A DNA stretch of 64,000 nucleotides, taken from NCBI GenBank assembly GCA_021735655.1, contig JAIPGM010000001.1, forward strand, positions 128,001 to 192,000, read 5' to 3'. Origin of the DNA: Candidatus Omnitrophota bacterium (GTDB lineage Bacteria > Omnitrophota > Gorgyraeia > Duberdicusellales > 4484-171). Under the pieces are notes generated by a model that worked only from the letters and a program-made list of their open reading frames with translations, was not told the DNA's origin and did no database searches. Within the stretch, counting starts at the first letter, position 1; each line of letters begins with the position of its first letter. A program made the translations under genes and the position numbers. Below are positions 3 through 45,500 of the stretch, piece by piece.

Positions 3-515
3 CTTGAGGTGGGAACCGGTTCAGGCTGGCAAACCGCCATATTAGCTACTTTAAGCTATGGCGGTAGTGTTTATTCAATCGAACAAGACCTCGAAGTAGC
101 TAGGGTTGCTCAAAGTAATATTTCGGCGGCGAGGATTAGCAATATTTTCCTTATTCAAGCTGATGCAATGCAACCAATAGATGTATTAGCCGGTAAAAAA
201 TTTGAACGAATCATTGTTTCCGGGGCATTACCACAAGGAATACCGGTCATATTGTTAGATTATCTCGACTTGTCAGGAATAATGATTGCTCCGATAAATC
301 ACGGTAACTCTAGTGATAGTTTATGGAGGATTACCAAGGGGTATGACGGAACCATGGCTGCATCTAGAGTAGATAAAAATATGAGATTCCAGCGGATCAA
401 TGTTGCAAGTAGTACCTCAGTAATTCCAGTTAATCAGGCTAAGAAATTACAAGATTTATCTATTGAGCAAGCTACAGAGCTTGGTGTTCTGTTGGCTGAT
501 AGGAAAGCTCGAGCT
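3..515 (+). CDS. pcm: Module 0 (5' truncated): C-terminal part of protein-L-isoaspartate O-methyltransferase.
   Basis: LEVGTGSGWQTAILA is a SAM-binding motif I identical in style to the PCMT VLEIGTGSGYQAA. The spacing of the downstream motifs fits the PCMT fold. Confidence 0.55.
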
Positions 516-24500: not shown

Positions 24501-27500
24501 GCTGCTGCTGAGCATATACCTTATGGAGAAGTAATCACAAAAATACTTGTAGTTTCAGGAATGATAATGATAGCTGTAGTAATGCTTAACTTTTTTTATA
24601 TAGTAGTTCGTATACTAATTGTCGAAGTAAATGATTTGATAAAACGATCCAGAAAGAAAACTAAGCCTAAGGGTCTATCGGCCTATGCTCGTTCAATGGG
24701 ATTATATTTTTTAAGACAAAGATCATCTGGCCTAGATAAATATTATGTCAAAGGGTCTTTCTCGCGTTTCTTTAGTGTAGATACTAATAAAAGAAAACCT
24801 AAATCTGGTCACGATAAACCGCTCGATAACGGAAAAGATAAAGACCAGAGTCCAGACAAGCGTATTCCGATAGCAAAATTATTACCACAGTTACTTAAAC
24901 AATCCCAGGCTGAGCTGTCTCAAGGTCCGCCTCATACAATTAGCCAAACCAGTGAAATATTAATGCGAGTTGGCGAGCTAACAGTGTCACTTAGCTACCT
25001 AAGAAGACAGTTAGGTATATATTTAAGAGCTAATCCTTCAGTTGAGATAACTCATAATATTTCTTCCGGTGGTTCAGTTCGTAATCACAGTGGTTTACTC
25101 CCTGGAGAAACCTTAATTGAGGTAAGGACCGCTGGGCGACCGACTAGATTAGTAAAAGTAATTCGGGTTGGTAGTTTTGGTTCAGAGATTGGCCTAAAAA
25201 GTCCTAGGCTCAGAGAATGGATAAATTCCCGATATCAAGAGTTAGCTGAGTTTGTAAACTTGGGCGATGAGTTTGAATGGAGAACTAAGAATGGTAGGCC
25301 GCGTTTGCCCGGTGATTTGTATCCGGGTTATGAAATTTTAGGATATCGAATGCTTAAAGATGGAAGGACCAGCGCTGATTTTATATTTATTTTTGAAAGA
25401 CAAAGCTCTAAGAAATTGAGAGGAGATGAAGGGTTAGTTAGATTAATGGTTTCTAATCCTAAGAACCTAAATCGACCGGTATACTTGGGAATGATTTGTC
25501 GCGATCCGAGATTTTTTGAATTAGCTGAGCGACTAACGACTGGTGTAACCCTTAGCGATATAGTAGCGACCCCTAAGGGTGAACCGCTTGATAACGGAAA
25601 GAATAACCCTTATTCTGATGCTGAAATCGAAGCTATGACTGCCCAGATAGCTCCTCAAGGTTTAGCTGAGTGGGATGAACAGATAGCGAGTTTAAGCTTA
25701 GCCGCTGAGAGTTTCTTGGAAACTGAAAAAGCAGTAAGAGATCATTTGGCGATGCTTAATCAACGCTTTGGTCCATTGGGAATTCGTTTCACTGCCACCC
25801 AGGTGGGTTTAGTTGCAATTATGAGTAAACCAGCAGATCTGGAACATAGTGATGCTTTACAGGAAGAGGTATTCCGTTACTATGAATTGGCTGAAGAAGC
25901 TAAACGGGCTCAAACTAACTGTCAGCAATGTCATAATAATTTATTAAATAGTTTTAGTGGTATTTTAGAACCGGCCATTAGTATGGCGGTTACCATCAGC
26001 CGGAGCCAAAATCGACCAGCTCAGTTTAATCAGCTTAGGAGTGCGATTATTGTTTCTCAAGAGCGTTGGCAGGCAGCTAAAGAAATTGAAAAAAGCTTAG
26101 CAGCTGTTGTTTTTGAGGGAGCATCTATCCATCTTCCGGAAACAATTCTTCCTCAAGGAGTAAGCTCTGAGGAAGCTGAGCGGTTGTTTAAAGATGTGTT
26201 CATCGATATTAAATCACCTTATCTAAGATTACGATTGATATCGCTTGATTTATACTTTTTATTGTTTCGTTTAGCTATCGGTACAATTGAACCAGTTCTT
26301 GGTTACAATCGGGCTTTAAGTTTAGCCCAGCGTGCGGCCACCCTTGAGAAACTTAACGAAAGACTTCTTCCAGAAAATCGCGGGGTTAGAGGAATACATC
26401 AGATTTTTGAATCAGCTAACGGCAATTTAGGTGAAATCAGAGCAATTATTGCTGAACGCCAAAGTCGGATAGTAGCAATTGATCAGCCAGCTGACTTATT
26501 AGCTTTAGATATTTTAGTTGCGCGAATTGAAGATGATTGTGTTTTAATGCAACGGGCTTTAAGTCTTGATAAAAGAGAAGCGCTACCGACTCTTGCACGT
26601 AGATTATTAAAATTAGCTGCTGATATTAAAGCACAGCGTCAAAGCACTCCGGTGGGTGCTGTATTCTCGGCACTTTTACCTAAGAACTCCCAGGGTAAAC
26701 AGAAAGAATCACCGACTAAACAGAATGCTTTTATTGTTGTTACCATGAGTGCTAACCAAGCTCCGATGGTTCACATTACTAATAAGCCGGCTGGTTTGCT
26801 GGATAATGAAGTTGGTCGGATTGCCTTTAGAGCCCTTGATTGTTTTAGTTGGCAAGATTTAGAAATTAGTGAAGGGGTTGATCGACTTAATTTATTAGGC
26901 GCACTTGGTCCGCTTAGTTATGGAATAACTCGTGAGCTTCGTCAGAAAGGTCTATTTATGTTAACCGGCGAGATATACAATTTGTTAAAAACGATAAGAA
27001 ATTTAGGCCGGGTTAAATTAATTATTCTTCCGAATCAAACAGCTCAACCTCAGGCAATACTTGATCTTGAGAGAACTTTAGAATTAGCTGATAGTCCTTT
27101 AGATAACGGCCGACCTTTGTCAGTTTATGAAGCAAATAAAAGGTTTTTTATGGCTTTGGGAGAATTAGTTCAGTGGCAACAAAGTTCACCAAAAAATTAC
27201 TGGTTTAAAAATACTGACCAGTTTTTGCAAGACTTGGCTGGTTTTCGTGAAAGATTTGAGGAATTAGTTGGTCAACCTCAGCTTGGAGAATTTCCTCAGT
27301 CATTAACTTCTTTGCTTGAAACCAATGAGAGGGTGGTGGGTGTTTTTCGTTACCAGTTTTATGCCGAAATTGAAGAGTGGCGAGATGAAGTTCTAGCTGT
27401 TCTCACCAATTTAGAAGCCGATAGCGGATATCTGTTTGAGGCAGTAACCGAATTAAAAGAGTTAGTTTCAATACACAAAGATAGTATTCTTCATTTTCAA

Positions 27501-30500
27501 ACCTTTATTGAGAATATAGCTAAAATTCAGAGTACTATAATTTCAGAGATAATGAGAAGGTTAATTCAAGTTGATGAGCGGCTCGATCAGTTACTTGAAC
27601 AAATTGAACAAGAAGGTTCAGAAGTTAGCCAAATTTTAACTGAGCTATCTGAGGTATTTTCTGATATATATGGTTTACATTTTGAAGTTTGTATAACTAC
27701 AGCTAGTCGTTATCTTACAAAAGGTAACGATTTAGTTAAGGAAATATTTCAATATTTTCTTGATAGATTAGATGAGGCGAAACCGCTTGATAATGGCCGA
27801 AGACCTAGGCGGCGTTCAGATAAAGGTGAAAGTAAGTGGGATATTTTAGATCGGTTTAGCCAAAAACTCAGAACTGTGGATACGGAAGTATTAGCGGACG
27901 TAGACCAACAAAGAAGCATTGGAGCTAAGAGAAGAATTTTAACTAGAATCGGTATAGATGAAGCTAGCCAATTAGACGGAGCTTTCTTGCTAGGCGCAGT
28001 TAGCAAAGCCTTAAAGCGCCAGGTTGGAAATTTAAGCCATGATTCAAGCCCGATTACCGTAACTGAGCCGCTTATTTATGCTGGAGTTGGTCGTTTTCTA
28101 ATTTGCTATAAAGATGAAAATATTGACGATGGCCTAGCAGTTAAAATTGCTAGCAGCGAAGCTTCTTTGCGTAATGCTGATCTTTATTCTTTAAACGGAG
28201 TCCGCATCGCCATTAATCGTTTAGGCACAGGCTTAGCTGCCAGCACAATGATTATTGATGCCCGTTGGCCAGAGGTTAGGTCTTTTGTTTTTAACGTTAT
28301 TGATCAAGCTGGACATCCTAGAAGGATTGAAACTCAAATCGCTATCGTCCAACAAAAAGTTTTACCGTTAATTGAGTATTTAAAACGTTTAGGTCGTCGA
28401 GGCTCTAAGGACCAAGATGTATTAAAGGCAATTACCTATGTTGATAAGTTTAAACAGCTTATAATTGCTATGTATAAACAAGGGGTTATTGATGATGATA
28501 CTTTTAATATTGTGGGAAATTACGGGATATTAAAGGTTAATGATAGTATTGTAATTTTTGATCTCGGTGATCTTTCTGATTCAGCTGATCGAGCTGCAGG
28601 TTTTGTTAGAAATTTAGATAGCTACAACCAACAGATGTTTGAAGCCTTTTTAGAAATAGACGGTGTTTTCCTTGATGAACGGATTGCCGATTATTTTATA
28701 AATAACCCGTTAAAAAGAGAAGATTTTATTTCTGGCCAAGGAGATCTATTCGGATCCGAATACGATCGGGAAAGTTCAAGAATGGTTTTCCCTTACGATG
28801 AGGAAACAGTAAGGATGTGGGGGGTTCGGGCTTTTGATTTAGTAAGCCCCGATACAGAGGCTAGCCAGCAACCACTCAATAATGGAAAAGCTAGGACTAT
28901 TTCTCGTTTTGAACAAGAAACTAGAACTGAGCCTTATCTTGTTCCTGAAGCTGAAGGCGTTGTATATCAAGCAGTGGCTAAATTTTTTAGAGCTAATGGA
29001 GATAGCCAGACATTTAGAGTTCTAGATCTTTTCAGTGGAGCCCATACCTATATACCGACCTTGAACCAAGTTCAGGTTGAAGAGTGTATTGGCGTAGGCA
29101 TAAGGGCGCAAGAGTTAGAATTGAATCCTAACTTAAAAGGTAACCCTAGCTACTTAGTTTTAGATTTAAATCAGGATAAGTTGCCTGAGCAGTGGAATCA
29201 GCGTTTTGATTTAGTCTTAGTGGTTAACGGGGTAGCTTACGTTGAGGATCATTTCAGATTATTTGCTGAGGCTGCAACTGTGACTAGACTCGGTGGCAGA
29301 TTATTAGTTGTTTTTACTACTGAAGCCTATTCTACCGAGATTTCAAAAACTTGGAAATATTTAGGTAGCGGTTCTTTAGGCCAGAGAAATAAAATTAGAC
29401 ATATTAGTGAATCAATAGCTAGAGTTCGCCAGTTTGGGCCTGTTGCCCATGGACATTTTACTTATACCATTCAACATGGCTTAGATATTTATGATAAGCC
29501 TTTAGAAATCATTACTGCGGTCAGAAAGAGTAGTGCTATTCCGCTCGATAACGGTAAAGTGCGTTTGCCGATAAGTCCTTTGAGGTTAGCTTCGTTAGTA
29601 ATAGTTCCCTGGTTTGCTATCGGATTATCGATTTATTTTGGTGATTGGTACGTTGATACAGTTAAATCATCGGATTTAAACGCAATGTTAGTTAAAGGGT
29701 TTTTAGGTGGTCTAGCTTGTGGTTTTGGGATGTATGTAAAGCAGACAATTAGTGGCCAAACCCTGAGCCGTAAAAATTTCGGAAAGATACTTCGTTGGAC
29801 TTTAGCCGGATCAATATATTTAGGTTTAATTGTTTTTGGTGCCTGGTATGGATTTTTGAAAGCTAATGTTCCCAGTGATGTTTGGAAGGTTATTTTAGAT
29901 ATAACTTTATTTTCAGCTTTCATCGGTTTACCGCTAAACTATTTAATTCAAAGATATATTGTTGACTATGACAGCTACCGTAAAAAAACAATTAAAAAGC
30001 ATATTGTTAATTATCTACGTCTTTGGATTTTTAATGCCAGCTGGTGGGGATTTTGGTTAGGCCTTTCTTGGTCACTTTGGCCGGATAGTATCGACCTTAT
30101 TGTGGCCAATGTAAGGATTATTTGGTCCGGCATATTTATTTATTATCTTAGTGAGTGGGTTGAATCTGGTTCAAGTAGTCTACAAGCGTCATCTAAACCA
30201 CTCGATAACGGCCATCAACCGCGTAAAATTATTTGGATTAATTTTGGTGGTTGGCGCGGCTATTGGTTTGCGGCAACCGGCATTGAAACTTTAGCCGGTT
30301 TTATTGAGAAAAATTATTCCGGCGAGTTAGAGCAGGAAGTTTTTTATTATAACCCTAGCCAGATTACTCAATTTAGCGAGCATCTAAGTCAGGCCTCAGC
30401 TGATTTTATTTGTTTTTCAGTTAATCCGATGTATTTTGATTTGGCTATGGATTTTGCTCAAGAGATTCAAGCTAGTTTAGAGGCTTCACCTAACACGAGA

Positions 30501-33500
30501 TTAGTTTTTGGTAACCGGGGAATATCTGGCAAGGAAGCAGCAATCCTAAAAGCTTTTCCTGAAGCTTTAGTAGTAACCAACGAAGGTGAAGAAGCTATGC
30601 TGGGAATTGTTAAAGGCGACGCCCGAGAGTCAATTCCTAATCTTTGGTATGTTGATCAAAACGGAGAAGCTAAATTTACTTATCCTCAGGTACTTTCGGC
30701 AGCTGATTACGTGGCTCCTTCTAAAAATATTCGCAAGATCAATGAACAGCCGCTTCCTTGGTATCAGGATGTTGGCTTTGTTGAGGGAACTCGTGATTGT
30801 TCAAAAGCTAGTTCGCGGCCTTGCACTTTTTGTGTGCATAGTTGTCGTCGAGCTCAGATACCAAAAAATCAATGGCGCTTGCTTAATGTTGCTGAGACTT
30901 TAAAGAGTATCGAGGCAGAAGTTAATTCCGGTAAAAGTACAATCAACATTGTAGCTGAAGATTTATTGGGTAGCGATCCAAAGCAAGTAGAACTTTTATT
31001 TTCCGGGATTAGGCAACTAAAGCGAAGCGGACGTATACCTAGGACAACTACCTTTTATGCTTCAATTATGACTTATCACATTTATCGTCGGGCTGATTCT
31101 TTATGGAGTAAATTTAAAAAGATATTGCGGCTTATCCGTATGCGCCGCCTCGGGTTTACTACGGTTTTTGTTGGTTTTGAGAGTGGTTCTGATCCTCAAC
31201 TTAAGCGTTACAATAAGGCTGTATCGGCCTTTGAGACTAGAATGGCTATTCGGATATTGCTTTGGCTCGGGTTTCATATTGATGGTGGTTTTATTAATTT
31301 TGACCCTTTAATGAGCCTGGATGATTGCTTGACTAATGTAGCTTTCTTGCGTTTAGCTAAGGTGCCTAAATTATTATTGTTTCCGTTTAATCAGCTAATT
31401 GTATTTCCTAATACCGCTTATGCTAAGTTAGCTGGGAGACGCCAGCCGGAACCAGTTGTTCAAAGGCTACTTAACTGTATAGCTAGAGTTAATCAAGAGA
31501 TACCTTATTTTCAGTTTGAGATATTCTTGCAACGTTTGCGCTTAGCTTATTTTGCCGGGACTGATAAGGCTAGTATTCGAGAATATGAACAAATTCTTTA
31601 TCGTTATGGCAATCTTTGTTTAGATTTTATCGAACAGATTGTAGTAGCTCTAAAGAGAGGCGCAAGCGATTCTGAACTAGAGACTTTAACCGATCAATTC
31701 CTAAATAGACACAGGCAGTTTATTGATAATTTTTATATTTGGGCTCGGGTTAGGGCACCGGAGATGTTTGAGCGAACCATGTATGCGGTTCGGCCGCAAT
31801 CCAGCGAAAGAGCCGGTTATGTGCCGGGTTTTAGTTTTTGCGATCTTGAGCAGTATGGTTCTTTAAATGTTCCTTCTGGCCCTGCGGAAAGTCTGATTGA
31901 TATTGAGCCTTATGTTGACGATCGAATTCCTCAAGAAATACCCTTAGCAGTAGCCCAAGGCCAAGCGGCAATTGAAATCCATTGTGGATTAGTTGTTGAC
32001 ACTAATACTTTACTTGGGCAATGGCGAGCTCAAGGAGCCACAGTTAGTGAGCTTTCAGTAGGGGTGGCCAATCTTAAAGAAAGCTGGTATGTAGTAAATC
32101 GAGAAAGTGGTGTCACCTATGTTTTAAGACGAGTCCAAGGCAAGACTCGCCTTAATCATTATTTGGCGATGTTGAAATATTTGGGTGTGCCGCGTGAAAA
32201 AATATTTGTCCGAGATTTTAAAACTGCTTACCGAACTATTTATCAGAATAATTTAGCTGATTTAGCCGGCAAGCTCACCCAGTGTGTATTTAGTTTTAAT
32301 CTCACTGAACGCTTGGAAGATCTTCAGGCAGTTTATCCGGCAGCAACCGTAAGGGAAGTTCAGGTTGATGGTTTTCATCATGCGGTTATTACCTTTAGCC
32401 GAGATAACCAAATTCTTTTAATTGATCTTAGTGATGCCTACGGAAGTCAAATTGCTCAAGTTCTTGACTTTGTAGTTAGCCCTCTCGAACAAGGTGGCTT
32501 AGCTATAGAAAGAGTTTTATTTTTAGGAGCCTGTGGAGCAGTAGCTGATAATATTGCTTTAAATGATGCAGTTATAATGCAGGGTTTAATTGATGATGAT
32601 CCTCAGGCAGTTGGTTTTCCGGTTAACCAAGTTGACGCTGATCGACTTTTTAGCTATTTAAATTTAAGTTATGAAGATTTTAACGACATGATTCATACAG
32701 TAGGCGCTCGGGGAGCGCATTCTGAAGGTTTATGTTGTCAGACCACTGCTAATCTTGCTGATTGGCAAGCTCGCGGAGCTGATTTTGTTGAAATGGAGCT
32801 ATTGCCTATTATTGAAGTATTAAGAAATTACTGGCATGTTCAGTTGGAAGTAATTCTCCAAGTTACCGATCTTTTAGGCCGTGAGAAAGAATATCAATTG
32901 GGTCAAGGGGTGCCAGCTGCCGCTGAAGCTAGGAGAGCAGCTCGTTTCCGAAAGGCGATTGCTTTATATTTAGTTGGTAATTTAAAGCCAAAAGTTACTG
33001 TAAATGCTAGTCGAAACTTTAGCCTTGACGCTGTTCCTTTGGATAACGGAAAAAGCGAAAAAACTAGTCCAATCGTGCGAGCTCCGCCTTTAGATAATGG
33101 CAAGCAAAGCAAATCTCACCCGGCAGTAATTAGCGAATATGAGGTTTCACGGTTTGTGGCTAAAATAGCTCAAACCCGTCGTCAGGAGATGAGGGTAAAT
33201 ATTCGCTCTAGCTTAGGCCTTGAGTCTTTTATTAGTTTAGTTAAGGGGGAGCGTCTTGAAGCCCTTAGAGAAAAAGTTATAAATTTACATCAATCCGGTG
33301 TTAGGAAGATAGTTTTGATGAACGCTACTGAATCTGGTGGTGGCGTTGCCGAGATGATGCATGATATTGTTTCAGTTATGTGCAGCGCTGGAATGGCTGC
33401 TGAGTGGGTTGTTATGGATGGCCACAGTGCTTTCTTTAATGTAACTGTGCATATTCATGAAGGACTTCAGTCGCCAGCCAAGGAAGATATTTCTTTAGAG

Positions 33501-36500
33501 GAAATAGCTTTGTTTGACGAAGCCAGTATCGGAAATTTTGAACGCCTTGAGCAGGATGGTTACTTTGATGGACTTGATTTATTTTTTGCCGAAGACCCTC
33601 AGATAGTCGGTCTAATACCATTGATCAGGGCTTTTTATCCAGAGGTTCATCTTGCTTGGCGTTGTCATATTGACACCTCTACTCCTAATCGTCAAATTGC
33701 CGAATTTGTTAGCGATATGGTTAGCGGCCGTCTTGATCCAGTACGGGATAAATTACTCTATGACTATCTTTTAAAGCGTTTAATGAGAGAGGGTATGATT
33801 GGAGCAGCAGTTGATTTTGAACAAATGATGCAGGCTAATTCCCTTTCGGTTAATCTTGCCCAAGTTGCGACTAGAAGATTGTTGGCCGATATAGCTATTT
33901 ATCACACCGAAGAATTTGCTTTAGGATTACATCTCCAAACTAAAGGCGTGCCAACCTTTATTATGCCTCCGGCAATTAACCCTTTTAGTTATAAAAATAT
34001 TCCCCTAGCTGATAATTTTATTCGGGCAACTATGGTTAAATATGGTTTAGATCCCAATAAATTTACGGTTGTTGAAATATCACGTTTCGATCCTTTTAAG
34101 GGGCCGCTGGAGGCCATTCAGGCTTTTGTGCGTTTATTTTTGGATAATCCGGGATTGCAGAATGATTTACAATTTGTTTATGCCGGAAATATGGCTGACG
34201 ATAACCCTAAGGGAAAACGCGATTTTGAAAAGATCGATGCCTATTCTCGCTATCTTAGAAAGAAATTTCCTAAACTTAGGAAAGCCTTGTTTTTGCTCGG
34301 TCTTGGGAATAAACCCGGGACAGTAGCCTTAAATTGGGCCCAGAGACGCAGCTTGCGTGTTGGTGGTCAGTTTGCTCGGCCATTTTCTCGGAAAGAGATA
34401 GGTCGACTCAACGGTGTTGAGATAAATGCTCTTGAGGTTAATGCTTTACAGCAACAACTTGAGATGGAAAAAAGAGACGGTAGGTTAGTTATTTCTTTAC
34501 CGCGTAAAATAGCAATACAGCCTTCATCAAAAGAAGGTTTTGGCTTAGTGGCGGCTGAGGCTACCGGAAAAGGTACTCTGGTTATCGCTTCTTTGATCGG
34601 TGGCCTTAAAGCGCAATTAAAGGATTTGCTTGCGCAAGCTTCTTGGTTGGGCATTAACTATACGCCGGAGGAAATTAGTCAATCTTTAGAGGTGTATGAC
34701 TCAATGGATTCTGATCAGCATAGAGGTGTTGTTTTCGATGTGGCTTATTTGGAAAGAATTAATTTATATCAACGGCTTAATCAACGAGAATTCGTTTTGG
34801 GTTTAGCTACCTCTCTGCGGGTGGCTTACGAACTGGCTCATAAAAATCCAGATGTCTATCGAGAGCTCGGTTTAGCTGCACGTTGCCAGACTTTAGATAA
34901 GTTTATTACTCTAGCTAATGTTGAGAACCGCTTAGCCGCCGCTTCCTTGATTGTTGATAATCAGCAGCCCTTGGATAATGGTAAGCCAGAAGTTCCGATG
35001 CCTTCTTCTTATTGGATCGATCATAGCCTTCTTCATGAAATTGATAATGTTTGGGCTAACTTGGATTGGATTAATCCCGGGCCAAGTTTAAGCATAGCTC
35101 GCCAGATTGAGAAAAATTTTAAGCCAGCACAAGAGCCAGGTTTTTTAAGAGTTAGCATAGATGCCTTTGGTCCGCTTAACGGATTTAAAAATCAAGTATT
35201 AGCTGAACATGAGCAGTATTTTGATTCCGAGGTTTATAAAGATTATCGAGCTGGCATAATTCATGCTATTGATAATCTTTGGCAACACGGCGGAAAGTAC
35301 GGTGCCTTATTTTTGATGGCTCAGCTTAGAGGACGAACCGTACGCTTTACTTATTGTTTGCTAGATCGCGGTGATGGTTTTATTAATGACGATTACAACC
35401 ATGTTCGTTTAGAAGAAGCCGTTCAGGCACATAGAACATTTAAACGAGCCGGCAAGAATGGTATGGGCCTTTATTATATGGCGATAAAGCCGGATTATTT
35501 TTCAATCACCGCGGTTAATTGCTACCGGGCTGTTGCCACAACTCAAGCTCACTATTGGGAAACTGGCTACACTAAAGAATGGCCGTTTTGCCCGCAACAA
35601 ACTCCGGTTAACAAGGGGGTGCGGGTGATTTCGGTAAAGGATGTAGCTTTAGGCCTTTTGCCATTTTCGAATATGCAGCCGTTAGATAATGGCCGTCGAA
35701 CTGATGAAGAACGCCTGGATTTTATCGGATTTTTAGTTGAGTCATATTTAGAGGCTTTATTTACTTTCCGGAGGTTAAGAGCAAATAACAGCGAAGTAGC
35801 CGAGATGTATCTGCCAGCAATTTCCGAAACTGCCGTTAGAAAGAAACGAGCCAAATGGGTAGTTACAGCTGTTGAGGTTGCCCGTGAGGCATTTCAGGTT
35901 ATGGCTCGAGCTGATTTTCGACATTCATCCGGCTTAACCATTCGTTCAATCTTTGATTCAATTTTGGCTTCTGGCGGTCGCAACCAAGCAGCTAATGATC
36001 TAGGAGTCGATCGCGCTAGCCTTACTCGCTGGATGCATAGCTTACCTAATGATTTATTAGGTGGGTTAGATCCAGAATTAGCAGTCTTCAAACAAAGAAT
36101 CCTTGATTTATTTGATGAAAACAATACTCGACCCCTAGACAACGGTAAAGAAAATATAGATTTATTAGCGGTTACAGCAGTTAAAAGAGAGGACACCTCA
36201 CCGTGGCTGGCGGGCCCTCTCTCTGCTGTAGCCCCTATATATATAGGTAAACAGCAGGGGCCGCTAGATAACGGCCGAGCGCCTTTGGATAATGGCCAGC
36301 CAGCTAACTTTTGGAAAGTTTTGCATTCTGGTATATACGTACTTCCGATATATTACACTCGACTTTTCGATACAGCTAAAGACGCAGGAATTGGAAAATA
36401 TACTTATGTAGTGCCGTTTGTTCGTGATCATGTATTGTCTTTAGGCCATCAAGCGATACTTTTCTTACCGTTTTCTTTGCAGTTACCTTGGTCGCAATCT

Positions 36501-39500
36501 CCTTATGATGCGGCTGATTGGCGTTATTTTAATACTGATTATATTGATTGGGGGCTTATCCCTGAGGCTCAACCTTTTCTAGGTAAGTTCGATTATTACG
36601 GTCATTCACAGCGTAGCGTTGATTTTCGATCAATCCGGCCACGTGAATTATTAATCGGAAAGGCCGCCTTTCTTAATCTCAGAGACAATCGAGAAAAACA
36701 ATACCGCCAGCGCTGGGAAGATTTTCAAAGGTTTGTTAACAATCAGCGAAGTAGAGGGCCGGAGTGGGATTTAACCCATCTTGGTCATTACCGGGCCTTC
36801 AATGATGTCTTGGGTAATGATTTTGGTTTATGGGTTCATGAAGGGATGTATTGCCCTAGGCAGGATACCCATCCAGATGTTATCAAGTACAACGTTGCTG
36901 AGCAAAATAAAAATATGCAATATTCAGATTTAATTCAGTTCTATCAATACCAGCAATGGATTGCTTTCGGCCAGGCTCGCGATATGCTTGAAGGTTTGCG
37001 CAATATTGGTGTCTTTTATCTTTTAGATAATCCTTTCTTTCATGCTAAGGGTGGTATTAATTTTTGGACCCAAAACATCATTTCAAGAGATAGGCATTAT
37101 GAATTTTTTGATCGTTCACCCGGTGTACCCGGAATCGGTAGTGACCCTGAACAATTCTGGACATCTTTGGTTCCTTGGAATTGGCCTAGATTAAGAGAGT
37201 TGGACTATGAACCTTTCTTAAACCCTTATCATTATTATTTAGGTGATTTGGGCGCTCAGGGAGTTCGGGCTGATGCTATTCATTTTCTTTTTCCTTGGAT
37301 TCATTGGGAACGCGGTCCTTATGCTGCTAATTTTCAGAGTTGGGAGTCCCCGGGTCATGATTTACTTTGGAGATTAGACAACGTTTTTAATTCTTATGGA
37401 GCTTTCAGGCTTGGCGAGTTACTTGGCCCGGGTTTTGAAAGTATTCAGAGAATGGGCTTTGATAATTATCACTGGCATTTCTATCGGATGTGGAAATGGG
37501 GTGGCGGACCTGATTTAAATCCGGGTTGGAACGCAAAAGCTTTAGAGTTACATGATGGGCCGCGGGTTTGTGTTGACCATGAACACGGGTTCTATCCTTA
37601 TGCCGGACACGCTTATTTACGGCATCGTTTGGAGGGCCCGGGCGGTCTAAAAGAATTAAATAGTCGTTTCCTTTTAGGCAGTTCGGATATAGCTATGGTT
37701 TATGCCGGAGATGAAGTAGCCGACAACTGGTGGATAAATAACCCTAATCTGCCTGAGTGGATGATGGATCGTAATTGGGCCACTCGAATGCCAATGCAGG
37801 GCGATCAGGATTTTGATCTTTCAGTAGCCTTGTCCATGCTTGAGCATCGCCGTTGGATTGGCCAGCGTCTAATTGAGCGGACGCCTTTGGATAATGGTAA
37901 GCAAGAGTTTAATCATCTTAGCTTGGTTGAATCTAACGGTGAACAAAAGTTATACTCAGCCAGTAGTTTAGTAATATCTCAAAGGGGAGTCTATTTAAGC
38001 CCGACATCAACCGGGCCGAAAGAGGTAATTTCTCAGATTCAACTTAGCCCAAGCGGAATTAAAGTTTCCGGGGAGTTAACTAGCCAGGAGCCAAAATCCC
38101 GGCCAATAGATTATCGTCACTCTTATGAAATTAACTTTTATTTTGAAAAATTAGCTAAAGCCTATGGCCGCGGTTTGTTTGTCGGTATCAATGACGTACA
38201 GCTTTGGATTCGTCTTAGCCAGGCTTTGGGTGATTTTTTATGGGGCGTTTTGCGTCTTGAAACAGGGATTTTTGATATTCCCGATAGAAAATTACGACGC
38301 CTGGTGATTCAGGAAGCGCTTTATCATGAGGTGATGACTAGTGCCTTGGGGCTTTCAGTGGCTAATCGCGGCTTGCGTGAGTTTTTTGCAACCATTTTAA
38401 GTGTCAGCCATTTTTGCTATCTTAGCGAGATAGCTAAAGATCAGGATAAGCTTAATTATCGTTTAGGGATTCTGCAAGCTCTTGATCGGGGTTTAATCCA
38501 GATGAGTGATTCACTGGCTGGGCTATACCGTCAAATTGCCGAGTCTGGCAGTTTACCTGATCCAGCAACCTTGGTAAAAGCAGTTATAACCCATATTAAT
38601 GAAGAAGAACGATACCATAGTGACCGGCGTTCATTTAGGGATTATGTTCGAACTAAGTCCGAGAATTTTAGCGGACGCTTTACAGTCGGAAATCTTACCC
38701 AGGCGGTATTAAATGATTCAGCTTTACAGTTAGAGTTACAGGCAGAGTGGACAAATTTCTTGGGATTTTTAGCTAATTCACAAACCGTAGCCCGTGCCTG
38801 GCAGCCGAAAATTAAATTTATAAGAGGTCCGCGGGGCATAAAGGTTATTAATCCCCAAGGCGTACCGGATCAAGGCGGCTATCAATTCCAGCTGCAAAGT
38901 TTCCGGGCAATTTTTGACTGTTTGGGTTTGCCTAATCCGCTTAGTGAGCCAGCTGCCCTAAATAGATATTTAGGTTTTCTGCCTGAGCCTCCTGAGTATG
39001 ACTCCCAAGCCGTAAATTTACCGGAGTTAAACATCAGTCAAATTTTACCCGGAGTAGCTGTTGTTTATCCGGATAGTTTGGAAGCTAATCAATTAGCGGT
39101 AAGGCGAGCTTTGTATGAATTGATGAATTTTCGGGTTTGGAAGTTAGCCGTTGAAATACGTGGCGCCTTAGGTACAGAAGATGCTTTGTTTTTTGATCAG
39201 CATTGTCAGGTACATTCCTTTGTTGATGTAGCCCAAGGGTGGATGTTAGATTTAAATCCCCAAAGCCCGATAGTCTATGATGATGTTTTACCCGGCGGCC
39301 AAGCTTACGAAGCGCCGGAGCAGCCGGATTTAGCCGAACATGAGCGATTGCATCAAAAGGCTCAGGCAGTTTTTTCAAAAGTTTGGGCAATCACTATGAA
39401 CAGGTTCTTGCGGGATCAGCGGATGTTTGGCGGTGAAGCCGTGGGTTTAGTTGGCTTTACTACAACCGTACCAATATTATATCGTTACATACAGCAATGT

Positions 39501-42500
39501 AAGCATTCTGAGCCGGAATACTCACTACAGCGACCTTTGAATAATGGCCTAGGCATACTTCAATATTTACAATCTTTACGTCGTAGCCAGGAAACCGAGG
39601 CTGCTAGAAGGGTTAGTCTAGACCAAGGCTTTGGGCAATTAAAAAGTTTATTAGTTGAAAAATTACAGTCGATTGATTCAACCACTTTAAGCATTGCAAA
39701 TCTTGATCAGGCTTTGAATGAAGATAGCCAGGCGATATTTTTAACCTTAGAGCAATTAAGAGAGGCACGCTTTCAGGCTGAGAGCTTTCGTAATGGGCAG
39801 GTAAGTATGTGTGATCTTGCTAGCCTAGCTTTGGCCGCTGCCAGCGAAGAAGTTTTTGGCCAGAGACACTTAGTTAAAATAGTTGTTGGCTATTATCGGG
39901 TTGATGAGCAGCTATATAAAAAACATTATTGGGTTGTGATTGATGAAACATTGTTGATTGATATAACTTATGGTCAGTTTGATCCGGACCATCTCAATCG
40001 TATTTTAGTTGCTACAGTAGATGATTACTTGAGATTAAAATTAGAATATGGTACAGAGTTAGAGCCGCTTGATAATGGAAAACAAACTCAAGTTCAGCCT
40101 ACTTGTTTAGAGGCTAGGTGGTGGAATAATTATTATCCCGGGGTTATCGAAGGAACTGGAATAAGGCCGACTGCCCGCTCACTTAGCTTTGAGCAGATCG
40201 AAGAAGTGGTTTGTCTATTACTTCTCGATCAAGCCGGCCAGGAATTGGTAGCTAAAATAATAAATAGAGAACTGCCCGATGTATATCCTTCGGTTCGAAG
40301 AACCGCTCTTAAAGCTATGGTCAGGTTCGATCATTACGAACTTTTTGGCCCGAAGATAATTACTTGTTTGCAGGATGTAGTCAGAGATGGAGCTGAGATG
40401 TATCAGCCTTTTGCTCTTTATGCTTTGGCTCAGACCCCGGCTTTTAATGGCCCGGTTGCCAATAGATTTGCCGAGGAAGCACTTAAGGGGACCCTTAAAC
40501 CAAGCCCAAGAAAGCCTACCGCAGCCGAAAAAACTGCCTTACAGGAAGGGTTAGAGCCAAATACTCAAGCGATTAGATTTAAATCCCGGCTTGCTTCAGT
40601 TGAATATTTAAAAGGAGTTTTAGCTCAACGTCAAGGTTGGGCTCGGGTTTGCCTCGGAACAGTACCACATTTTAGTCGGGTTAGCAATCGCGCTTTAATC
40701 AATAAATTTGCTGCTCAGGTATTAGCAGCTGATAAAAAGCTTTCTTCTAGTTCAGCTCAGCGACGCCAGAAAGATAAGTCAGAATTTTGGGGTCTTGAGC
40801 AAGCTGAGTTTATTCATCCAGCTACTGGCCATGAAGCTTTGGTTGAGCTGGCCAATGATCCGGAGTTATCATCTAGTGATGAAAGTCCTTTGGTTGATCA
40901 AATACTACATCAGATGGAGGAATTAGGTTATGTGCCGATATTGCGACCCAGTAAATTTCAGCTTACTGAGCCAGCTCAAGGTCAGGAAGCTGAAATTGAT
41001 CGCGAGGCGCTTTGGACCAAGGATGCTGTTTTGATGATTTCTACTAAATTCGGAATAGTTCCGGTTTCTTCAGCATTAGCCAATCTTAAGGGCGGTGAGT
41101 TCGTCAGTGGCTATGGTAAGCGCGGCAGCTTTATGATTATTCCGGCAGCCGCTCTAAATTCAAAACAGCAGCTATCTGATATAATTCCCGAGGTTCCGAT
41201 TCATGTATTTCCTTCGGGATTTTTGGTGATCAATGATCAGGGCGTAATTCGTTTAAGAGGAACCTCGCATATTGACACTTCTTTAGGAGCAATTCCGATT
41301 ATGGCCCGGCCAGAATCAGGCCAGTTGATGTTAATCGATCCTTTGTTGCATCAGGTTGCCCGTACACACCCTCGCTATCGCGATCACTATCAATCAGTAG
41401 TTCAAGAAGATGGAGTGCGTTTTATTGATGTGCCCGAGCCTGAACGTCATTTAAATCCTGCTAATTTTGGTATTCTTCCCGGTGGAGAAATATTTATGCC
41501 TTATGCGCCGCGGACTAAACAAGTTTTAATTGAGGCTGGGGTTAATGAGCAGTATATAATAATGTTACCAAGTGAATTTAATAAGTATTTACCAACCCTT
41601 CATGTTTTGGCGGGGAGTATTGGCTGTTTAGTGGCCCAAGCTTTTCATCCGGTTGAGAAGCGAGAGCCGCTCGACAATGGCCATGAAAAAGAAAAACGGC
41701 AAACTAGATCCCGAGCAATAGATATATCAACCAAAGGTGCTGAAGATTTATTGTTTACTGAGCTTCAAACAGGGAGTTTAGTTAGTTTAGTGGTTGATGG
41801 CCTTGAGTATTGGCTTAGCCTTGACCAGGGCGATGAAGTTTGGTTTGATTTATATCGGCCTAAAGATGATATCATTGGCTATATTTATTTTCGAAATGAC
41901 GCAATGCCAGCCAGAAAAATAGCCAATTTTGGCGGCCCGAGCATTGTTCCGGCTTACCGGGGCAGGCATTTGTCGCGAGTTCTTTATTTTGTTTATTTTC
42001 GTTATCTTTGGCGCAATAATTATATCCCTGAAGAAGACTGTTTGACTATCGATGATCGATTGGCCCTAAAGCTTTATCATGAAGCTAAAAAGTTTTATTA
42101 CGATCAAGACCATACCTTTACTCCGTTTCAGATTATTCCCCGAGCCGAAAAGACTAAAGCTGCAAAACCTTTAGATAATGGCCACGATATGGTTCAAAAA
42201 CAATTATTTGAGTTAATTAAGCGTAAGTCAGATTCGATTAAAACTTTCTTAGAGCCGTTTGAAGCTTGCCTTGCTTACAATGGAGTGTTAGCTTTGCTGA
42301 TTCGAGGAAGGCCTGACTTGAGCGTTAAATTTTTGCTTAAGAAGATTGGCTCGGCTGAGCATTGGTTTTTACTGGCTGAAACTGTTTTAGGAAATCATCA
42401 GTTTGTGGTTGATATTTCGCCGCAAGGAAAGATGTTTACCGATATTGAGGTGCTGGTTGTAGATTGTGCTGAAGCCGGAAAAATAAATTATCTATATGAA

Positions 42501-45500
42501 GATTATACTGTAGTTAGCGATCAAGAAACCGAAAACTTATTGCGAGCCTTAGCAAGACAAAAAGGGATGAATGAGTTCTTGCATTTAGTTCATCAATTAC
42601 CAGAAGAAAAATGGATAGGTAGGTTACCGGATAGTGACCAGTCGATGCCACTTGATAATGGTAAATTAATCAATGAAGGTTCAGAAAGTTCTTTTTCCGA
42701 TATAACTAATTCGATGCGGGTGACTTTTGTTATGCCGATGTACAATGAACAGCAACGCTTACTTCCCAAGACTTCTGATAATCCCTATGGTGAAGATGCT
42801 TTAAGGGTTAAAGTAAGTCAATTTAGAGAACTCGAGCAAGAAAATCCTAATTTCCAGTGGCGGCTAATTGCCGTAGATGACGGAACTCCCGGGTTTGCTT
42901 CAGCCAAATGCCTTGAGCAGATTTTGGCTGAGATTGATGCCCAGAATCGGGAATTTAATATCTATTCTAAAGTTTTCGTAGTGGTGATAACTGAACAAGA
43001 AAAGAAACTCCTAGGCAGCCGAAAGGGTGGAGCGGTTTTGCGTGGCTTTCAAGAGGCCCTAAGCCACGGTTGGGCTGATTATATCGGGATTACTGATACT
43101 GATATTTCCAGTAATGTTAACCAAACTAAAGATTTGATTTTGGCTCTTCGCAAAGGTGCTGGAGTAGCCATTGGTTCACGCCGCCAAAGCGGGGCCGAAG
43201 CTCGCGGCATACCGCTTTTAGGGAGAGTTAGCACAGTTATTTATAATTGGTGCATTCGTTTGATTTTGTGGCCGCTTTTTTCAATTCGTGATACCCAGCG
43301 CGGTTTTAAACTTTTTCAAAAAGAAGTAATTGTCAGAATATTACCCTATGCTCGCGATCACCATCTTTCTTTTGATACTGAACTGTTACTTTTGTCGCGT
43401 TTAGCCGGATACCAAATAGCTGAGGTGCCGATTGTCTGGATTGATTCAGCTGAGGCAACTACTTTGGTTATGTCTAAAGATGCTCCAGCGATGCTCTGGC
43501 GAGTGATTAAACAAGCCCGCCATATTTTTAATAATCCTTTTCGCGGCCAAAAGCCGCTCGATAACGGCCGAAAAATAAATCTATCAGTTAGAATGCTCAG
43601 AAAAGCTAGATTAATTACTGTTCATGTTGATGCTGGAGATTGTCCAGCCGCCTTAGCTAGCGCGATTGATAAATTAGTTTCGGGTTTAGGGCAAATCCAA
43701 GTAAGCCGTAGTAATATTGTCTTAAACACCGCCCATCAGAATAGCCCTATGGATATTGTTTCGTCGGTAGGCTCTCTCTCAACTGAACAGATAACAACTT
43801 TATTTCCTGAAGCTGTTTTTCTGATTGCTGGCGGCAATGTGTTTAAATGCTTAAGAAATCTAGTTGAGTCATTGGCTGTCGGCTCAGTGAACAAGCGAAC
43901 TGTTAGGATTTTTGTTCTTTACGATTATACCTATGGCCAAGGCTCTAATTATAGCCCTGAGCAATTAGCCGGTGAATATTATGATTATTTTAGCGATATG
44001 CTTTCAGTCTATAGTGATAGGTTTAATCTAGCTGTATTTTATCTTGCTCAGAATCAATTCGAGCAGGAAATTTACGGTAAAAATTTATCCGGGCCCAATT
44101 TATCTTTAGCAATTATTGAAAAAGAAGCTTTAGCTAGTCAAGTACCTTTAGATAATGGGCGTAGTCTTGGGGAGTTAACTGCCGAAGGCTACAACTTAAA
44201 GTTTCTAGCCCGCAGTTCTGATTTAAGAATGACTGCCCATTGCCGAAGAGATGTAAGTTTTAATAGTTATCTTTATGATTATCGCCTGGATCCAGAGCAT
44301 ACTTATCGTCAAGCCCAATTAGTTCCTTTAGTTGCTCGATCGGTTAAGGAAAATGCTTTTAGAAAGTCTTCTGATTGGCAATACTTGCCGCAGCATTTGA
44401 AAGATTTATACGATTCCGGTAAAGTTTTGATGATTGCTTCCCGAGCCCAAGCTAAAGCTAAGCCTAGCCGGTATTCAGCCTTAGTAATTTCTGGCAGGAC
44501 TGAGGCTTTTAGCGGCCGGATGGGTATTTTACTCTATGACAATCGGCCGATCATTGTTTCAATTTTAGATAAGCCTTTTTTCATTGAAGCTAAAGGAATC
44601 GGGGTTGCTCAAGGAGGTTTTAGCTCAGTGCATCGGCGCTCGGGCCATAGATATGAAGTTACCGGGGCTCAGCGTTGGCAAGCTTCCTTAAAAGAATTTA
44701 CCAGTTTAGAGCTTGAGCGAAAAATCAGCCGATTTTTTGGAACAGCTGATACCCCACGCGCCTTAGCGGCGATAGTCTATAAATATCCTCAAATGGATCA
44801 GTTAATTAGTGATAGCCTAACTAGCCAGGCTGAGCGAAGAGAAGCTAAAGAGCAGTTAGGCGATAGTTTAGGGATAATGTTGCGGCTTTCGCCTTCGAGC
44901 CGCCGCTTTGCTTATAATTTAGAACAGCGTCACATTAGAATGCTTGGTGAAGCTTCAGCCCGCCTGCTTTGTTCTTATCTTCCCCGAGTGCATACTTCGC
45001 CGCATTTTGAAAATCTTCTGGAGTGGGCCGAAGGCAGTGAATTCTCTTGGTCAGACTATGGAGATATTGAAGTGTTATTTGCTCAAAGTAGTTATCACTG
45101 GTCAAGGTCACTGATTAATGCCCGTCGGATATTAATGTCTTATTTGGAAACTAGTATTAGCTGGAATGTAAATTTATTAAAAAAACTGGGAATAATCGAA
45201 ACCGAAGCAGAATTTATCAGCGAATACCTAGCTGGCTTTGTTGCTTATGCTGAAACTTTAGACTGGATAACTCCTGAGGCAATCGAACGTTTAGCCCGAG
45301 TCCGCTCGCCTAAGGAGTTTGTTGACGTAATGATTTTTGAAGTATTCGCTTTAAATGCTTACAACGTGTTTAAAAAACAAACTTATGAAACTATAGTTGA
45401 AGTTAATCAGAATAATTTAGTAGAAGAACTTTTAAGCTCGGCTTTAACTATTGCCCAGCGGCAAGAGAAAGCTCAACTTGTTGCTGAGTTAAGTGGACAT

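Follow-up and report, generated by a model that had tools for sequence, protein, structure and literature searches.

A giant Omnitrophota open reading frame punctuated by the junction peptide PLDNG[K/R], with a TreT-like glycosyltransferase among its units

Giant open reading frames (ORFs), 20-440 kb long, are a common feature of Omnitrophota genomes, and their products are not understood. We analyzed one of them in a window of 64,000 nucleotides (nt) from Candidatus Omnitrophota bacterium (GCA_021735655.1, contig JAIPGM010000001.1, positions 128,001 to 192,000 of the forward strand); all coordinates refer to this whole stretch. In this ORF the peptide PLDNG, mostly followed by K or R, stands at every boundary between complete protein units, which is the arrangement of a polyprotein. 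By its sequence the ORF is a punctuated multi-enzyme gene, and we see an even chance that it encodes a cellular polyprotein which a lineage-specific protease cuts at the junctions. One of the units is a TreT-like glycosyltransferase of family GT4. The ORF and the first unit in the window are:

3..63038, forward strand: giant ORF of more than 21,009 codons with at least 59 modules, open at the left edge of the window
First module in the window, forward strand: PCMT module, truncated by the window edge at profile position 80

The stop codon of the ORF is located at 63036-63038. Counted from base 9 the translation has 21,009 amino acids (aa), and bases 3-8 are free of stops as well. A six-frame scan of the window revealed no other ORF of at least 150 aa, in agreement with the initial annotation, which had described one ORF instead of an operon. 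The module coordinates given there are the exact segments between successive PLDNG motifs; evidently the ORF had been segmented by this motif. An artefact of stop-codon reassignment was ruled out, as the frame contains zero stops under translation table 11. The GC content at third codon positions was even across the modules (0.31 +/- 0.04).

PLDNG was found in 58 copies in the ORF, with 0.016 copies expected. All 58 copies are located between domains and none inside a domain. The position following PLDNG is K or R in 51 of the 58 copies, and beyond these six residues the flanking positions revealed no conservation. The copies are encoded by 44 distinct 15-mers in which every synonymous codon is used, leucine by all six (CTN and TTR). 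A degenerate DNA pattern for PLDNG matched exclusively in the frame and on the strand of the ORF, with zero matches in the other frames or on the other strand. Thus selection acts on the peptide, because only the nucleotides needed for the amino acids are invariant. At the junctions we observed no enrichment of Met codons or Shine-Dalgarno-like sequences and no excess of promoter- or terminator-like sites, and RNA folding at the junctions showed nothing special. Accordingly, nothing points to initiation at individual modules or to separate transcripts. Two known types of signal were considered for PLDNG and rejected. An N-glycosylation sequon does not fit since D is at position -1 instead of -2 and S/T is missing at +2, and a sortase-like LPXTG signal does not fit since the order of residues differs and no hydrophobic tail follows.

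Next to the exact copies, four one-residue variants were detected:

2376-2390, 28872-28886, 39534-39548 and 53082-53096, forward strand: junction variants PLNNGK (two copies), PLNNGL and PFDNGR, within larger modules

Both PLNNGK copies are placed directly upstream of a Pfam domain (guanylate kinase and methyltransferase, respectively). Therefore, the variants are probably diverged or decaying junctions. Three tandem junctions of the form PLDNGR-V/A-PLDNG[K/Q] were also observed (14793-14831, 18807-18845 and 36261-36299). With two residues in between they enclose "empty modules", and they may be sites of module loss or landing pads for insertion.

The modules were assigned by comparing the translation with Pfam, using overlapping 1250-aa pieces and then each module alone. 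Each Pfam domain was confined to one inter-motif segment and most domains were complete, and each of the larger modules resembles a complete ordinary protein in size and content. Some family could be assigned to 21 of the 47 modules of at least 100 aa, the other 26 being dark, and about 10 of the 21 annotatable modules are carbohydrate-related. Altogether, about 20 different Pfam families are distributed over the 21,009 aa, none of them dominant. Apart from the units for sugar transfer, these comprise PCMT, guanylate kinase, a glpX-type fructose-1,6-bisphosphatase (FBPase) with TPR, glycogen phosphorylase and a weakly matching PIG-L. Further families are two B12-radical S-adenosylmethionine (SAM) enzymes, RidA, phosphofructokinase (PFK), PNP_UDP, glutamate dehydrogenase and a pyridoxal phosphate (PLP) decarboxylase. 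Methyltransferase-like modules are present in the ORF as well, and module 53 gave a weak second PCMT match. The assignments are to be read as similarity at the level of superfamilies only.

To collect relatives of the ORF, the FBPase+TPR and phosphorylase units (aa 1740-2939) served as query in an exhaustive HMMER search, which resulted in 443 matches. The best matches were proteins of 1 to 8 thousand aa, and the named ones among them are partial proteins from Omnitrophota metagenome-assembled genomes (MAGs). A word-indexed search with the FBPase+TPR module gave nothing significant, because this module is too divergent to share 5-mers. The relatives, which derive from NCBI, JGI and Logan assemblies, contain homologous modules with up to 61% identity in the same punctuated architecture. 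Many of the long relatives have a strongly over-represented short peptide of their own:

P0243: junction peptide LDNGG ([SA]LDNGG), 7 copies
P0244: junction peptide SIDNGS
P0245: junction peptide SSP[VI]N[GS]
P0299: junction peptide [SA]SPL, 10 copies
P0256: junction peptide G[AS]RL[AST], 21 copies
P0250: junction peptide GAR[MIL][AP], 8 copies
P0281: junction peptide RSE[MVILA]R, 14 copies
P0292: junction peptide RSE[MVILA]R, 12 copies

These peptides flank the homologous FBPase or phosphorylase module, as PLDNG does in the window. In P0256, motifs at 1242 and 1893 enclose the FBPase unit (1267-1868), those at 1893 and 2284 a class-I aldolase (1907-2285), and those at 593 and 694 a HEAT unit (599-688). 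The SIDNGS of P0244 aligned residue for residue with a PLDNG junction of the window. By the coordinates of the aligned segments, the junction motifs of P0243 and P0245 coincide with the window junction that precedes the phosphorylase unit. Module order and neighbours differ among the related ORFs; in P0244, for example, the modules related to window units 9, 29 and 18 follow one another in this sequence. As an observation beside the junction before the phosphorylase module, the window has GTPLGE 15 residues past the junction (aa 2408-2414, ~7230-7250), where P0241 (57% identical) has NSPLAG. GTPLGE may be the remnant of a former SPLA-type junction beside the present PLDNG.

The exchange of the junction peptide between relatives bears on a chemical explanation of the motif. 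Asn-Gly is the most deamidation-prone dipeptide, and cyclisation of Asn cleaves the backbone in inteins, in FlhB/YscU and in some viral capsids. The junctions could thus be sites of autocatalytic cleavage or of timed deamidation via succinimide, with PCMT-like modules handling the isoaspartate. Asn-Gly is indeed invariant in all 58 copies, and a PCMT domain opens the window, with the weak second one in module 53. However, Asn-free junctions (G[AS]RLA, RSE[MLV]R and [SA]SPLA) occupy equivalent positions in the relatives, so that Asn-Gly chemistry cannot be general, and the invariant P-L-D and the K/R would be left without explanation. We therefore give this possibility very little credence. More broadly, the variety of junction peptides argues against a universal self-cleavage chemistry and against skipping at the level of the ribosome, and it fits a recognition partner that co-evolves with the peptide.

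The DNA of the junctions was analyzed in three relatives, L011 (JGI Ga0209726_10000374), L012 (GCA_028715335.1) and L013 (GCA_028710715.1). In L011, CCGGC[GT]CGCGG[CT]TGGCG was present in 12 of 21 copies; the junction DNA is TCYCTCGACAACGGCGGY in L012 and TCGCCGCTGGCG in L013. In all three loci it was found inside the giant ORF only, in frame and on the coding strand. Since the wobble positions are nearly fixed in these relatives, while the codons in the window are merely biased to C, the data hint that the junctions stem from a common DNA sequence that drifted afterwards. One could go further and regard the junctions as elements acting primarily at the level of DNA or RNA, either scars or recognition sequences of in-frame module assembly and shuffling, for instance by cassette capture or at hotspots of recombination, or signals for mRNA processing, with the peptide being incidental. 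The nearly fixed wobble positions would suit this explanation, as would the codon usage of the window motif, which departs from the ORF background, and the shuffled module order between ORFs. A hairpin described below, whose 19-nt core is found in three mini-modules in two reading frames and resembles SPLA/SRLA-type junction DNA, points in the same direction. In contrast, the 44 distinct 15-mers and the six leucine codons are the signature of peptide selection in the window, and the junctions are without excess RNA structure. Shuffling of DNA may moreover account for the origin of the junctions and leave room for a function of the peptide in the protein. A primary role in DNA or RNA thus appears quite improbable.

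In the polyprotein reading, the ORF would be transcribed and translated as one polyprotein, and a dedicated endopeptidase would cut at the junctions with a specificity that co-evolves with the motif in each lineage. Cutting between N and G or after K/R seems more plausible than cutting between G and K/R, because an N-terminal K or R would be destabilizing in bacteria with a Leu/N-degron pathway. A fixed-stoichiometry set of mostly cytoplasmic enzymes would be released. Among them the GH77 unit would disproportionate alpha-1,4-glucans and yield glucose, and the TreT-like enzyme would couple a nucleoside diphosphate (NDP)-glucose with glucose or a related acceptor to form trehalose or a similar disaccharide. 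Together with glycogen phosphorylase, FBPase, PFK and an invertase-like hydrolase, the released set would serve storage-glucan, compatible-solute and sugar-phosphate metabolism, and a GT4 unit most similar to mannosylglucosylglycerate synthase might join it. The GT2 and PglC-type units would start a separate glycan linked to polyprenyl phosphate, to which the weak PIG-L match may also point. In a bolder form, a large part of the intermediary metabolism of a free-living or episymbiotic bacterium would be encoded as polyprotein, an "operon in one ORF", with a peptide code read by a dedicated, lineage-drifting protease and with cassettes that are shuffled. For this form we would claim somewhat less than an even chance.

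The arrangement has two known counterparts. Viral polyproteins (picornavirus 3C, potyvirus NIa/TEV) likewise consist of one ORF with complete proteins in series, a lineage-variable boundary peptide and no internal starts. In contrast to these, the host of the window ORF is a cellular bacterium, the ORF carries at least 59 units of housekeeping-type metabolism in place of replication or capsid proteins, no protease was found in the window, and cleavage is presumed. Engineered "fuse-and-cleave" nif polyproteins with TEV sites (PMC6130400) follow the design proposed here for the window ORF, with fused metabolic enzymes, a fixed protease site and a balanced stoichiometry, but they are synthetic, have a handful of units and are cut by a known protease in trans.

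The same enzymes could also act as one uncleaved mega-enzyme in which PLDNG[KR] serves as a hinge, a turn linker, or a docking or modification motif for a partner such as a scaffold, a chaperone or an enzyme that modifies it. The sequence D-N-G is classically found in tight turns, and no protease was detected in the window. In published work, peptides were mapped to a giant ORF, and intact membrane-associated proteins or a "coat" were proposed. Seven transmembrane-like segments are present in the window and would be compatible with such proteins; however, these are the only hydrophobic segments in 21,009 aa. Furthermore, the modules resemble ordinary soluble enzymes of the cytoplasm, dependent on ATP, NDP-sugars, SAM or Fe-S clusters (PFK, guanylate kinase, TreT, radical SAM), and because of these units and the few transmembrane segments, free cytoplasmic enzymes fit better than an extracellular coat. 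A plain linker would not need five invariant residues in 58 copies with free flanks, nor would it be expected to be swapped wholesale for another invariant peptide in relatives. We regard an uncleaved product as unlikely, though far from negligible.

Several observations weigh against the polyprotein reading. The published models describe the giant proteins as intact, membrane-anchored surface structures (10.1101/2023.11.21.568195; 10.64898/2026.06.07.730766; PMC10066038). Pfam peptidase families were not detected in any module within the 21,009 aa of the window, the N-terminal part of the ORF lying upstream. A non-basic residue follows PLDNG in 7 of the 58 junctions. Several long relatives revealed no repeated motif by simple k-mer counting, and an unrelated giant ORF at the corresponding position of locus L007 in another Omnitrophota MAG (GCA_021735145.1) had neither homology to the window ORF nor a repeated motif, so that punctuation by junctions is not universal among Omnitrophota giant genes. 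As regards the specificities of the enzymes, no module reached an equivalog cut-off in NCBIfam, and the margins were wide. Finally, the PLDNG codons in the window are modestly skewed to C-ending ones (P, L, N and G against the ORF background, p 0.005 to 1e-4). Because of this bias and the conserved wobble positions in L011, L012 and L013, a role at the level of nucleic acid, or a recent spread of the junction DNA, is conceivable.

The TreT-like unit of the ORF shows how closely the junctions frame a complete protein. It is enclosed by the following features:

33036-33053, forward strand: second copy of junction PLDNG, 17 aa upstream of the copy at 33087
33087..33104, forward strand: junction PLDNGK, directly upstream of the TreT-like module
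33102..34967, forward strand: TreT-like GT4 module in a long form (aa 11032-11653, 622 aa, GT-B fold)
34968..34985, forward strand: junction PLDNGK, at the C-terminus of this module

The module matched Pfam TreT_GT1 (PF21269) with 107.8 bits at a cut-off of 27, and Glycos_transf_1 was matched as well. Comparison with Pyrococcus TreT (PDB 2x6q) gave an E value of 2.5e-39 over four colinear blocks with three insertions between them. In this alignment the blocks GGGVAE, WRCHID, SRFDPxKG and EGFGLxxxEA (E-x7-E) were present. An alignment of 50 sequences revealed invariant columns at G79-G81, H189, R328, D330, K333, E478 and E486. Using this alignment, AlphaFold predicted one compact unit with a predicted local distance difference test (pLDDT) score of 90.1 and a predicted template modelling (pTM) score of 0.90. 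Low confidence was confined to the first 9 residues, the C-terminal end and one insertion loop, that is, mainly to regions beside the junctions. A Foldseek search of the PDB returned TreT structures as all of the 12 best matches (E 5e-24 to 4e-21, target-normalised template modelling score 0.81-0.90). The next family (MshA, OtsA) followed at ~3e-11 and was thus about twelve orders of magnitude weaker.

Compared with TreT of Pyrococcus/Thermococcus and Thermoproteus (2x6q, 6zj4), the module shares the GT-B fold, the TreT_GT1 N-domain and all four blocks. In contrast, it has 622 aa instead of ~410 aa, with three insertions of ~50-60 aa and an N-terminal extension. The identity in the structural alignment is 23%, and the module is located inside a giant ORF. 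It scored 158.2 bits against the equivalog NF041139, whose cut-off of 775 was not reached, and we therefore call it TreT-like and not a demonstrated TreT orthologue. The module belongs to a long-form clade (P0001-P0008). The nearest members of this clade are free-standing Omnitrophica proteins of 1,000 aa with 51% and 47% identity. The closest of them, P0001, is 51% identical over 610 aa, and its homology covers aa 11041-11648, from 9 aa past one motif to 6 aa before the next. Homology to the free-standing proteins did not extend into the adjoining units. Members of the long-form clade (~600-700 aa with the same insertions; P0003, P0007) were also observed in eukaryotic transcriptomes (MMETSP, EukProt) with 28-35% identity. 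This distribution suggests that the clade may be a wider, uncharacterised GT4 subfamily.

Downstream of the TreT-like module the window contains two dark modules, a hairpin spacer and a second unit of glucan metabolism:

34983..35678, forward strand: dark module of 232 aa, no Pfam, NCBIfam or PDB-sequence match
35694..36131, forward strand: dark module of 146 aa, no Pfam, NCBIfam or PDB-sequence match
36147..36260, forward strand: mini-module of 38 aa with a ~64-nt hairpin (~36170-36233) and the 19-nt core CCTCACCGTGGCTGGCGGG
36261-36299, forward strand: tandem junction PLDNGR-A-PLDNGQ, directly after the hairpin mini-module
36297..37883, forward strand: divergent GH77 (4-alpha-glucanotransferase)-like module (aa 12097-12625)
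37884..37901, forward strand: junction PLDNGK, closing the GH77-like module

The GH77-like module matched Pfam Glyco_hydro_77 (PF02446) with 43.1 bits at a cut-off of 25, over profile positions 10-264 of 465. GH77 was the only family detected, since at E<=0.5 no match to the GH13 family (Alpha-amylase) was found in Pfam. PDB sequences gave no match even at E<=10. The cut-offs of the MalQ equivalogs were not reached (TIGR00217, 25.9 bits vs 205.65; NF011081, 34.1 bits vs 556). As in GH77 amylomaltase/MalQ, the N-terminal half fits the profile. A motif R-x-D-A-x-H that resembles region II of clan GH-H is followed by Glu and then by H-D in the expected spacing. The candidate catalytic residues in module numbering are D326 (VRADAIH), E375 (LGELLG) and D420 (LHDGPR), with order and spacing as expected. 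By the motifs usual for GH77, these would be the nucleophile, the acid/base and the third carboxylate of regions II-IV of clan GH-H. The GH77 module of P0245, a protein from Omnitrophota, keeps all three residues and aligned with the window module with an E value of 2e-30. P0245 scored 120.8 bits for GH77, likewise with a truncated profile match, and carries an amylo-1,6-glucosidase domain (GDE). In contrast to this fusion, the window module is without a GDE_C partner.

The remaining units for the transfer or hydrolysis of sugars are found further downstream:

42663..43553, forward strand: DPM1/AglJ-type GT2 module of 297 aa (Glycos_transf_2)
46347..47642, forward strand: PglC-type monotopic phosphoglycosyl transferase module, with an N-terminal helix and the catalytic domain in the first ~220 aa and ~210 aa more
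59997..61262, forward strand: GH100 (alkaline/neutral invertase-like, (alpha/alpha)6) module, from Pfam and PDB
61365..62804, forward strand: GT4 (GT-B) module (Glycos_transf_1)

Scanned alone, the GT2 module matched Glycos_transf_2 (PF00535) with 26.1 bits at a cut-off of 23.3; within the 1250-aa piece the score was 20.2 and therefore sub-threshold. It matched the dolichyl phosphate mannose synthase of P. furiosus (5mlz) with an E value of 3.7e-6, and the DXD motif is kept as DTD, aligned to DAD. The PglC-type module gave 94.9 bits for Bac_transf (PF02397) at a cut-off of 27, over profile positions 2-177 of 179, and matched PglC (8g1n) with an E value of 3e-14, the DE dyad being kept in LDELPQ. 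Like PglC, it has a full-length match, the motifs KF(R/K)T and LDELPQ, and one hydrophobic helix at the N-terminus (segment at aa 15488). It differs from PglC in the extra ~210 C-terminal aa, which have no assigned function, and in being embedded in a giant ORF. The GH100 module scored 46.2 bits for PF12899 at a cut-off of 23.6 (profile positions 290-430 of 435) and matched the cyanobacterial invertases 5z73/5goo with E values of 9e-9 to 7e-7. For the GT4 module at 61365-62804, the best NCBIfam match was mannosylglucosylglycerate synthase with 149.6 bits, far under the cut-off.

These results agree largely with the initial annotation, which had named a TreT-like GT4 synthase within 33102-37883 and, at the positions listed here, a DPM1-type GT2, a polyprenyl phosphate sugar-phosphate transferase, a six-hairpin glycoside hydrolase and a GT-B glycosyltransferase. 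The B12-radical SAM, methyltransferase-like and PLP decarboxylase modules that it had listed are present by Pfam as well. As a refutation it had named HMM searches that do not assign modules 33, 44 and 47 to GT4, GT2 and the family of bacterial sugar transferases, and all three assignments were obtained at Pfam thresholds. The module at 36297-37883 had been called GH13-like. Its region-II-like motif, GVRADAIHF, is there, and GH13 and GH77 both belong to clan GH-H, but the family is a divergent GH77 and not GH13.

The further claim that these units form a coherent cluster for glycan or glycoconjugate biosynthesis was not supported. In its strictest form, it would mean a dedicated glycan or glycoconjugate (or trehalose/alpha-glucan) pathway fused into one ORF, with the radical SAM, methyltransferase and PLP decarboxylase units tailoring the same product. 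In favor of this one can name the share of carbohydrate-active modules, about 10 of 21, which includes the PglC-type unit, a GT2 of the dolichyl or undecaprenyl phosphate type, two GT4 and the weak PIG-L-like deacetylase, as well as the location of the TreT-like and GH77-like units within 5 kb. However, the sugar units are interleaved over 63 kb with guanylate kinase, RidA, PFK, FBPase, glutamate dehydrogenase, PCMT and the 26 unassignable units, and modules for a flippase, a polymerase or nucleotide-sugar synthesis were not detected in the window. In related giant ORFs the homologous modules are reordered and have other neighbours, such as GH77 and GDE beside phosphorylase in P0245 or FBPase beside an aldolase in P0256. 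Nor do the nearest free-standing relatives of the TreT-like unit lie in glycan clusters. We consider a fused glycan pathway rather improbable. The sugar set would fit alpha-glucan, trehalose and sugar-phosphate metabolism at least as well as envelope glycans, because phosphorylase, GH77, TreT, FBPase, PFK and GH100 stand against GT2, PglC and the weak PIG-L. This glucan theme recurs in the relatives P0245 (GH77, GDE and phosphorylase) and P0256 (FBPase and aldolase).

By its composition the ORF is a member of a class that has been described before. Giant ORFs of more than 20 kb are known from most Omnitrophota lineages (PMC10066038). Glycosyltransferases, methyltransferases, glycoside hydrolases and domains of glycolytic type abound in the "Archaeovorins" (West-Roberts et al., 10.1101/2023.11.21.568195). 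A co-occurrence module for sugar metabolism was described for "multi-enzyme metabolic clusters", the class 1 of Nielsen & Lui (10.64898/2026.06.07.730766). The window ORF shares with these two groups the Omnitrophota origin, the single ORF of tens of kb, the divergent enzymes with an emphasis on sugars (GT1/GT4, phosphorylase, FBPase, radical SAM, methyltransferases), the large unannotated stretches and the few transmembrane helices. On these similarities we classify it as an Omnitrophota multi-enzyme giant ORF (Archaeovorin or class 1) enriched in sugar metabolism. An N-terminal signal or transmembrane region, C39 or S8 peptidases and SecA-like domains were reported for the class (10.1101/2023.11.21.568195). 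In the 21,009 aa of the window, upstream of which the N-terminus of the ORF is located, no C39/S8 peptidase or SecA-like domain was found. In contrast to the published descriptions, which give no junction motifs, the window ORF has an invariant hexapeptide at every module boundary.

In published work, it is explicitly called unknown whether and where the giant Omnitrophota proteins are cleaved, and missing information on cleavage points was named as what blocked analysis (10.1101/2023.11.21.568195). The words cleavage, linker, motif, polyprotein, processing and junction are absent from 10.64898/2026.06.07.730766. Our literature searches retrieved no relevant paper on PLDNG and no description of polyproteins, cleavage sites or recurring motifs in Omnitrophota. 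Preprints thus already cover the giant multi-enzyme ORF with its bias to sugars, whereas no description of junction motifs was found in the literature searched.

If the bolder form is true, the junction motifs would show for the first time, residue by residue, where the giant proteins of Omnitrophota are divided, and they would tell proteomics which neo-termini to expect. Splitting in silico at the motif yields units that can be folded and annotated, as illustrated by the TreT-like unit with a pLDDT of 90 once cut. The motifs also point to a system of protease-substrate co-evolution. Should processing take place, a strategy so far tied to viruses and synthetic biology would be used by a cell for housekeeping metabolism, and the junctions would be a source of new orthogonal protease/site pairs. 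As regards the sugar units themselves, the analysis delimits a TreT-like GT4 clade of long form and a lineage of divergent GH77.

The gene following the giant ORF was used to anchor the window taxonomically:

63079..64000, forward strand: OppA-type substrate-binding protein (SBP_bac_5) with signal peptide, next gene, cut by the window end

Most of the named matches of this substrate-binding protein (SBP) gene were from Candidatus Omnitrophica/Omnitrophota, with a top identity of 73%, and the named relatives of the modules are all proteins of Omnitrophota MAGs. Homology of the SBP gene and of the modules thus places the ORF in a genome that is most probably of Omnitrophota. The SBP gene belongs to a conserved Omnitrophota synteny of pgk-tpi-secG-SBP-permeases (loci L006, L007, L008 and L009). 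In the window as well as in L007 a giant ORF precedes the SBP gene, and the same chromosomal spot may be occupied by unrelated giant genes.

This context is also informative on whether the ORF could be an artefact, either a chimera from the assembly or a sequence that was designed or generated. A degenerate DNA probe for the tandem junction (PLDNGxxPLDNG) gave three unrelated low-complexity matches in GTDB representative genomes and JGI metagenomes and none in IMG/VR. By this probe, neither the window itself nor relatives with the exact motif are therefore in these sets. The absence of the window from representative genomes and metagenome contigs, like the weak scores of many domains, would be compatible with an artefact. 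However, homologous modules (<=61% identity) recur in punctuated ORFs of independent assemblies (NCBI, JGI and Logan), the giant ORF is flanked by an ordinary SBP gene in a synteny conserved in Omnitrophota, and weak domain scores were reported as typical of such giant proteins (10.1101/2023.11.21.568195). We find an artefact hardly credible.

Two minor observations concern duplicated elements within the ORF. Hairpin spacers were found three times, at 4511-4574, 20268-20330 and 36170-36233 (mini-modules aa 1494-1531, 6751-6778 and 12047-12084). Each is bracketed by PLDNG, and the 19-nt apical core CCTCACCGTGGCTGGCGGG is identical in all of them. Two copies are ~96% identical over 95 nt. The third copy has a different yet fully complementary stem and reads the core in another frame (TSPWLAG vs SPHRGWRD), so that the hairpin is conserved as nucleic acid and not as peptide. 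Scans with Rfam (the whole window at the gathering threshold, the hairpin region at a relaxed threshold) and for tRNA/tmRNA revealed nothing meaningful. A lone exact match of the core in viral contigs was dismissed as chance, the DNA being unrelated and of high GC. Junction DNA similar to the core is found in other giant ORFs of Omnitrophota, namely GCTTCACCGCTGGCGGCG of L013, encoding ASPLA, and ...CGCGGCTGGCG of L011, encoding GARLA.

The B12-binding/radical SAM modules at 14829-17231 and 30213-33035 are paralogues with 26% identity over 389 aa, and the latter is fused to a PNP_UDP_1 phosphorylase-like domain. Besides the 38-aa hairpin spacers, this pair is the only duplication of modules within the ORF.

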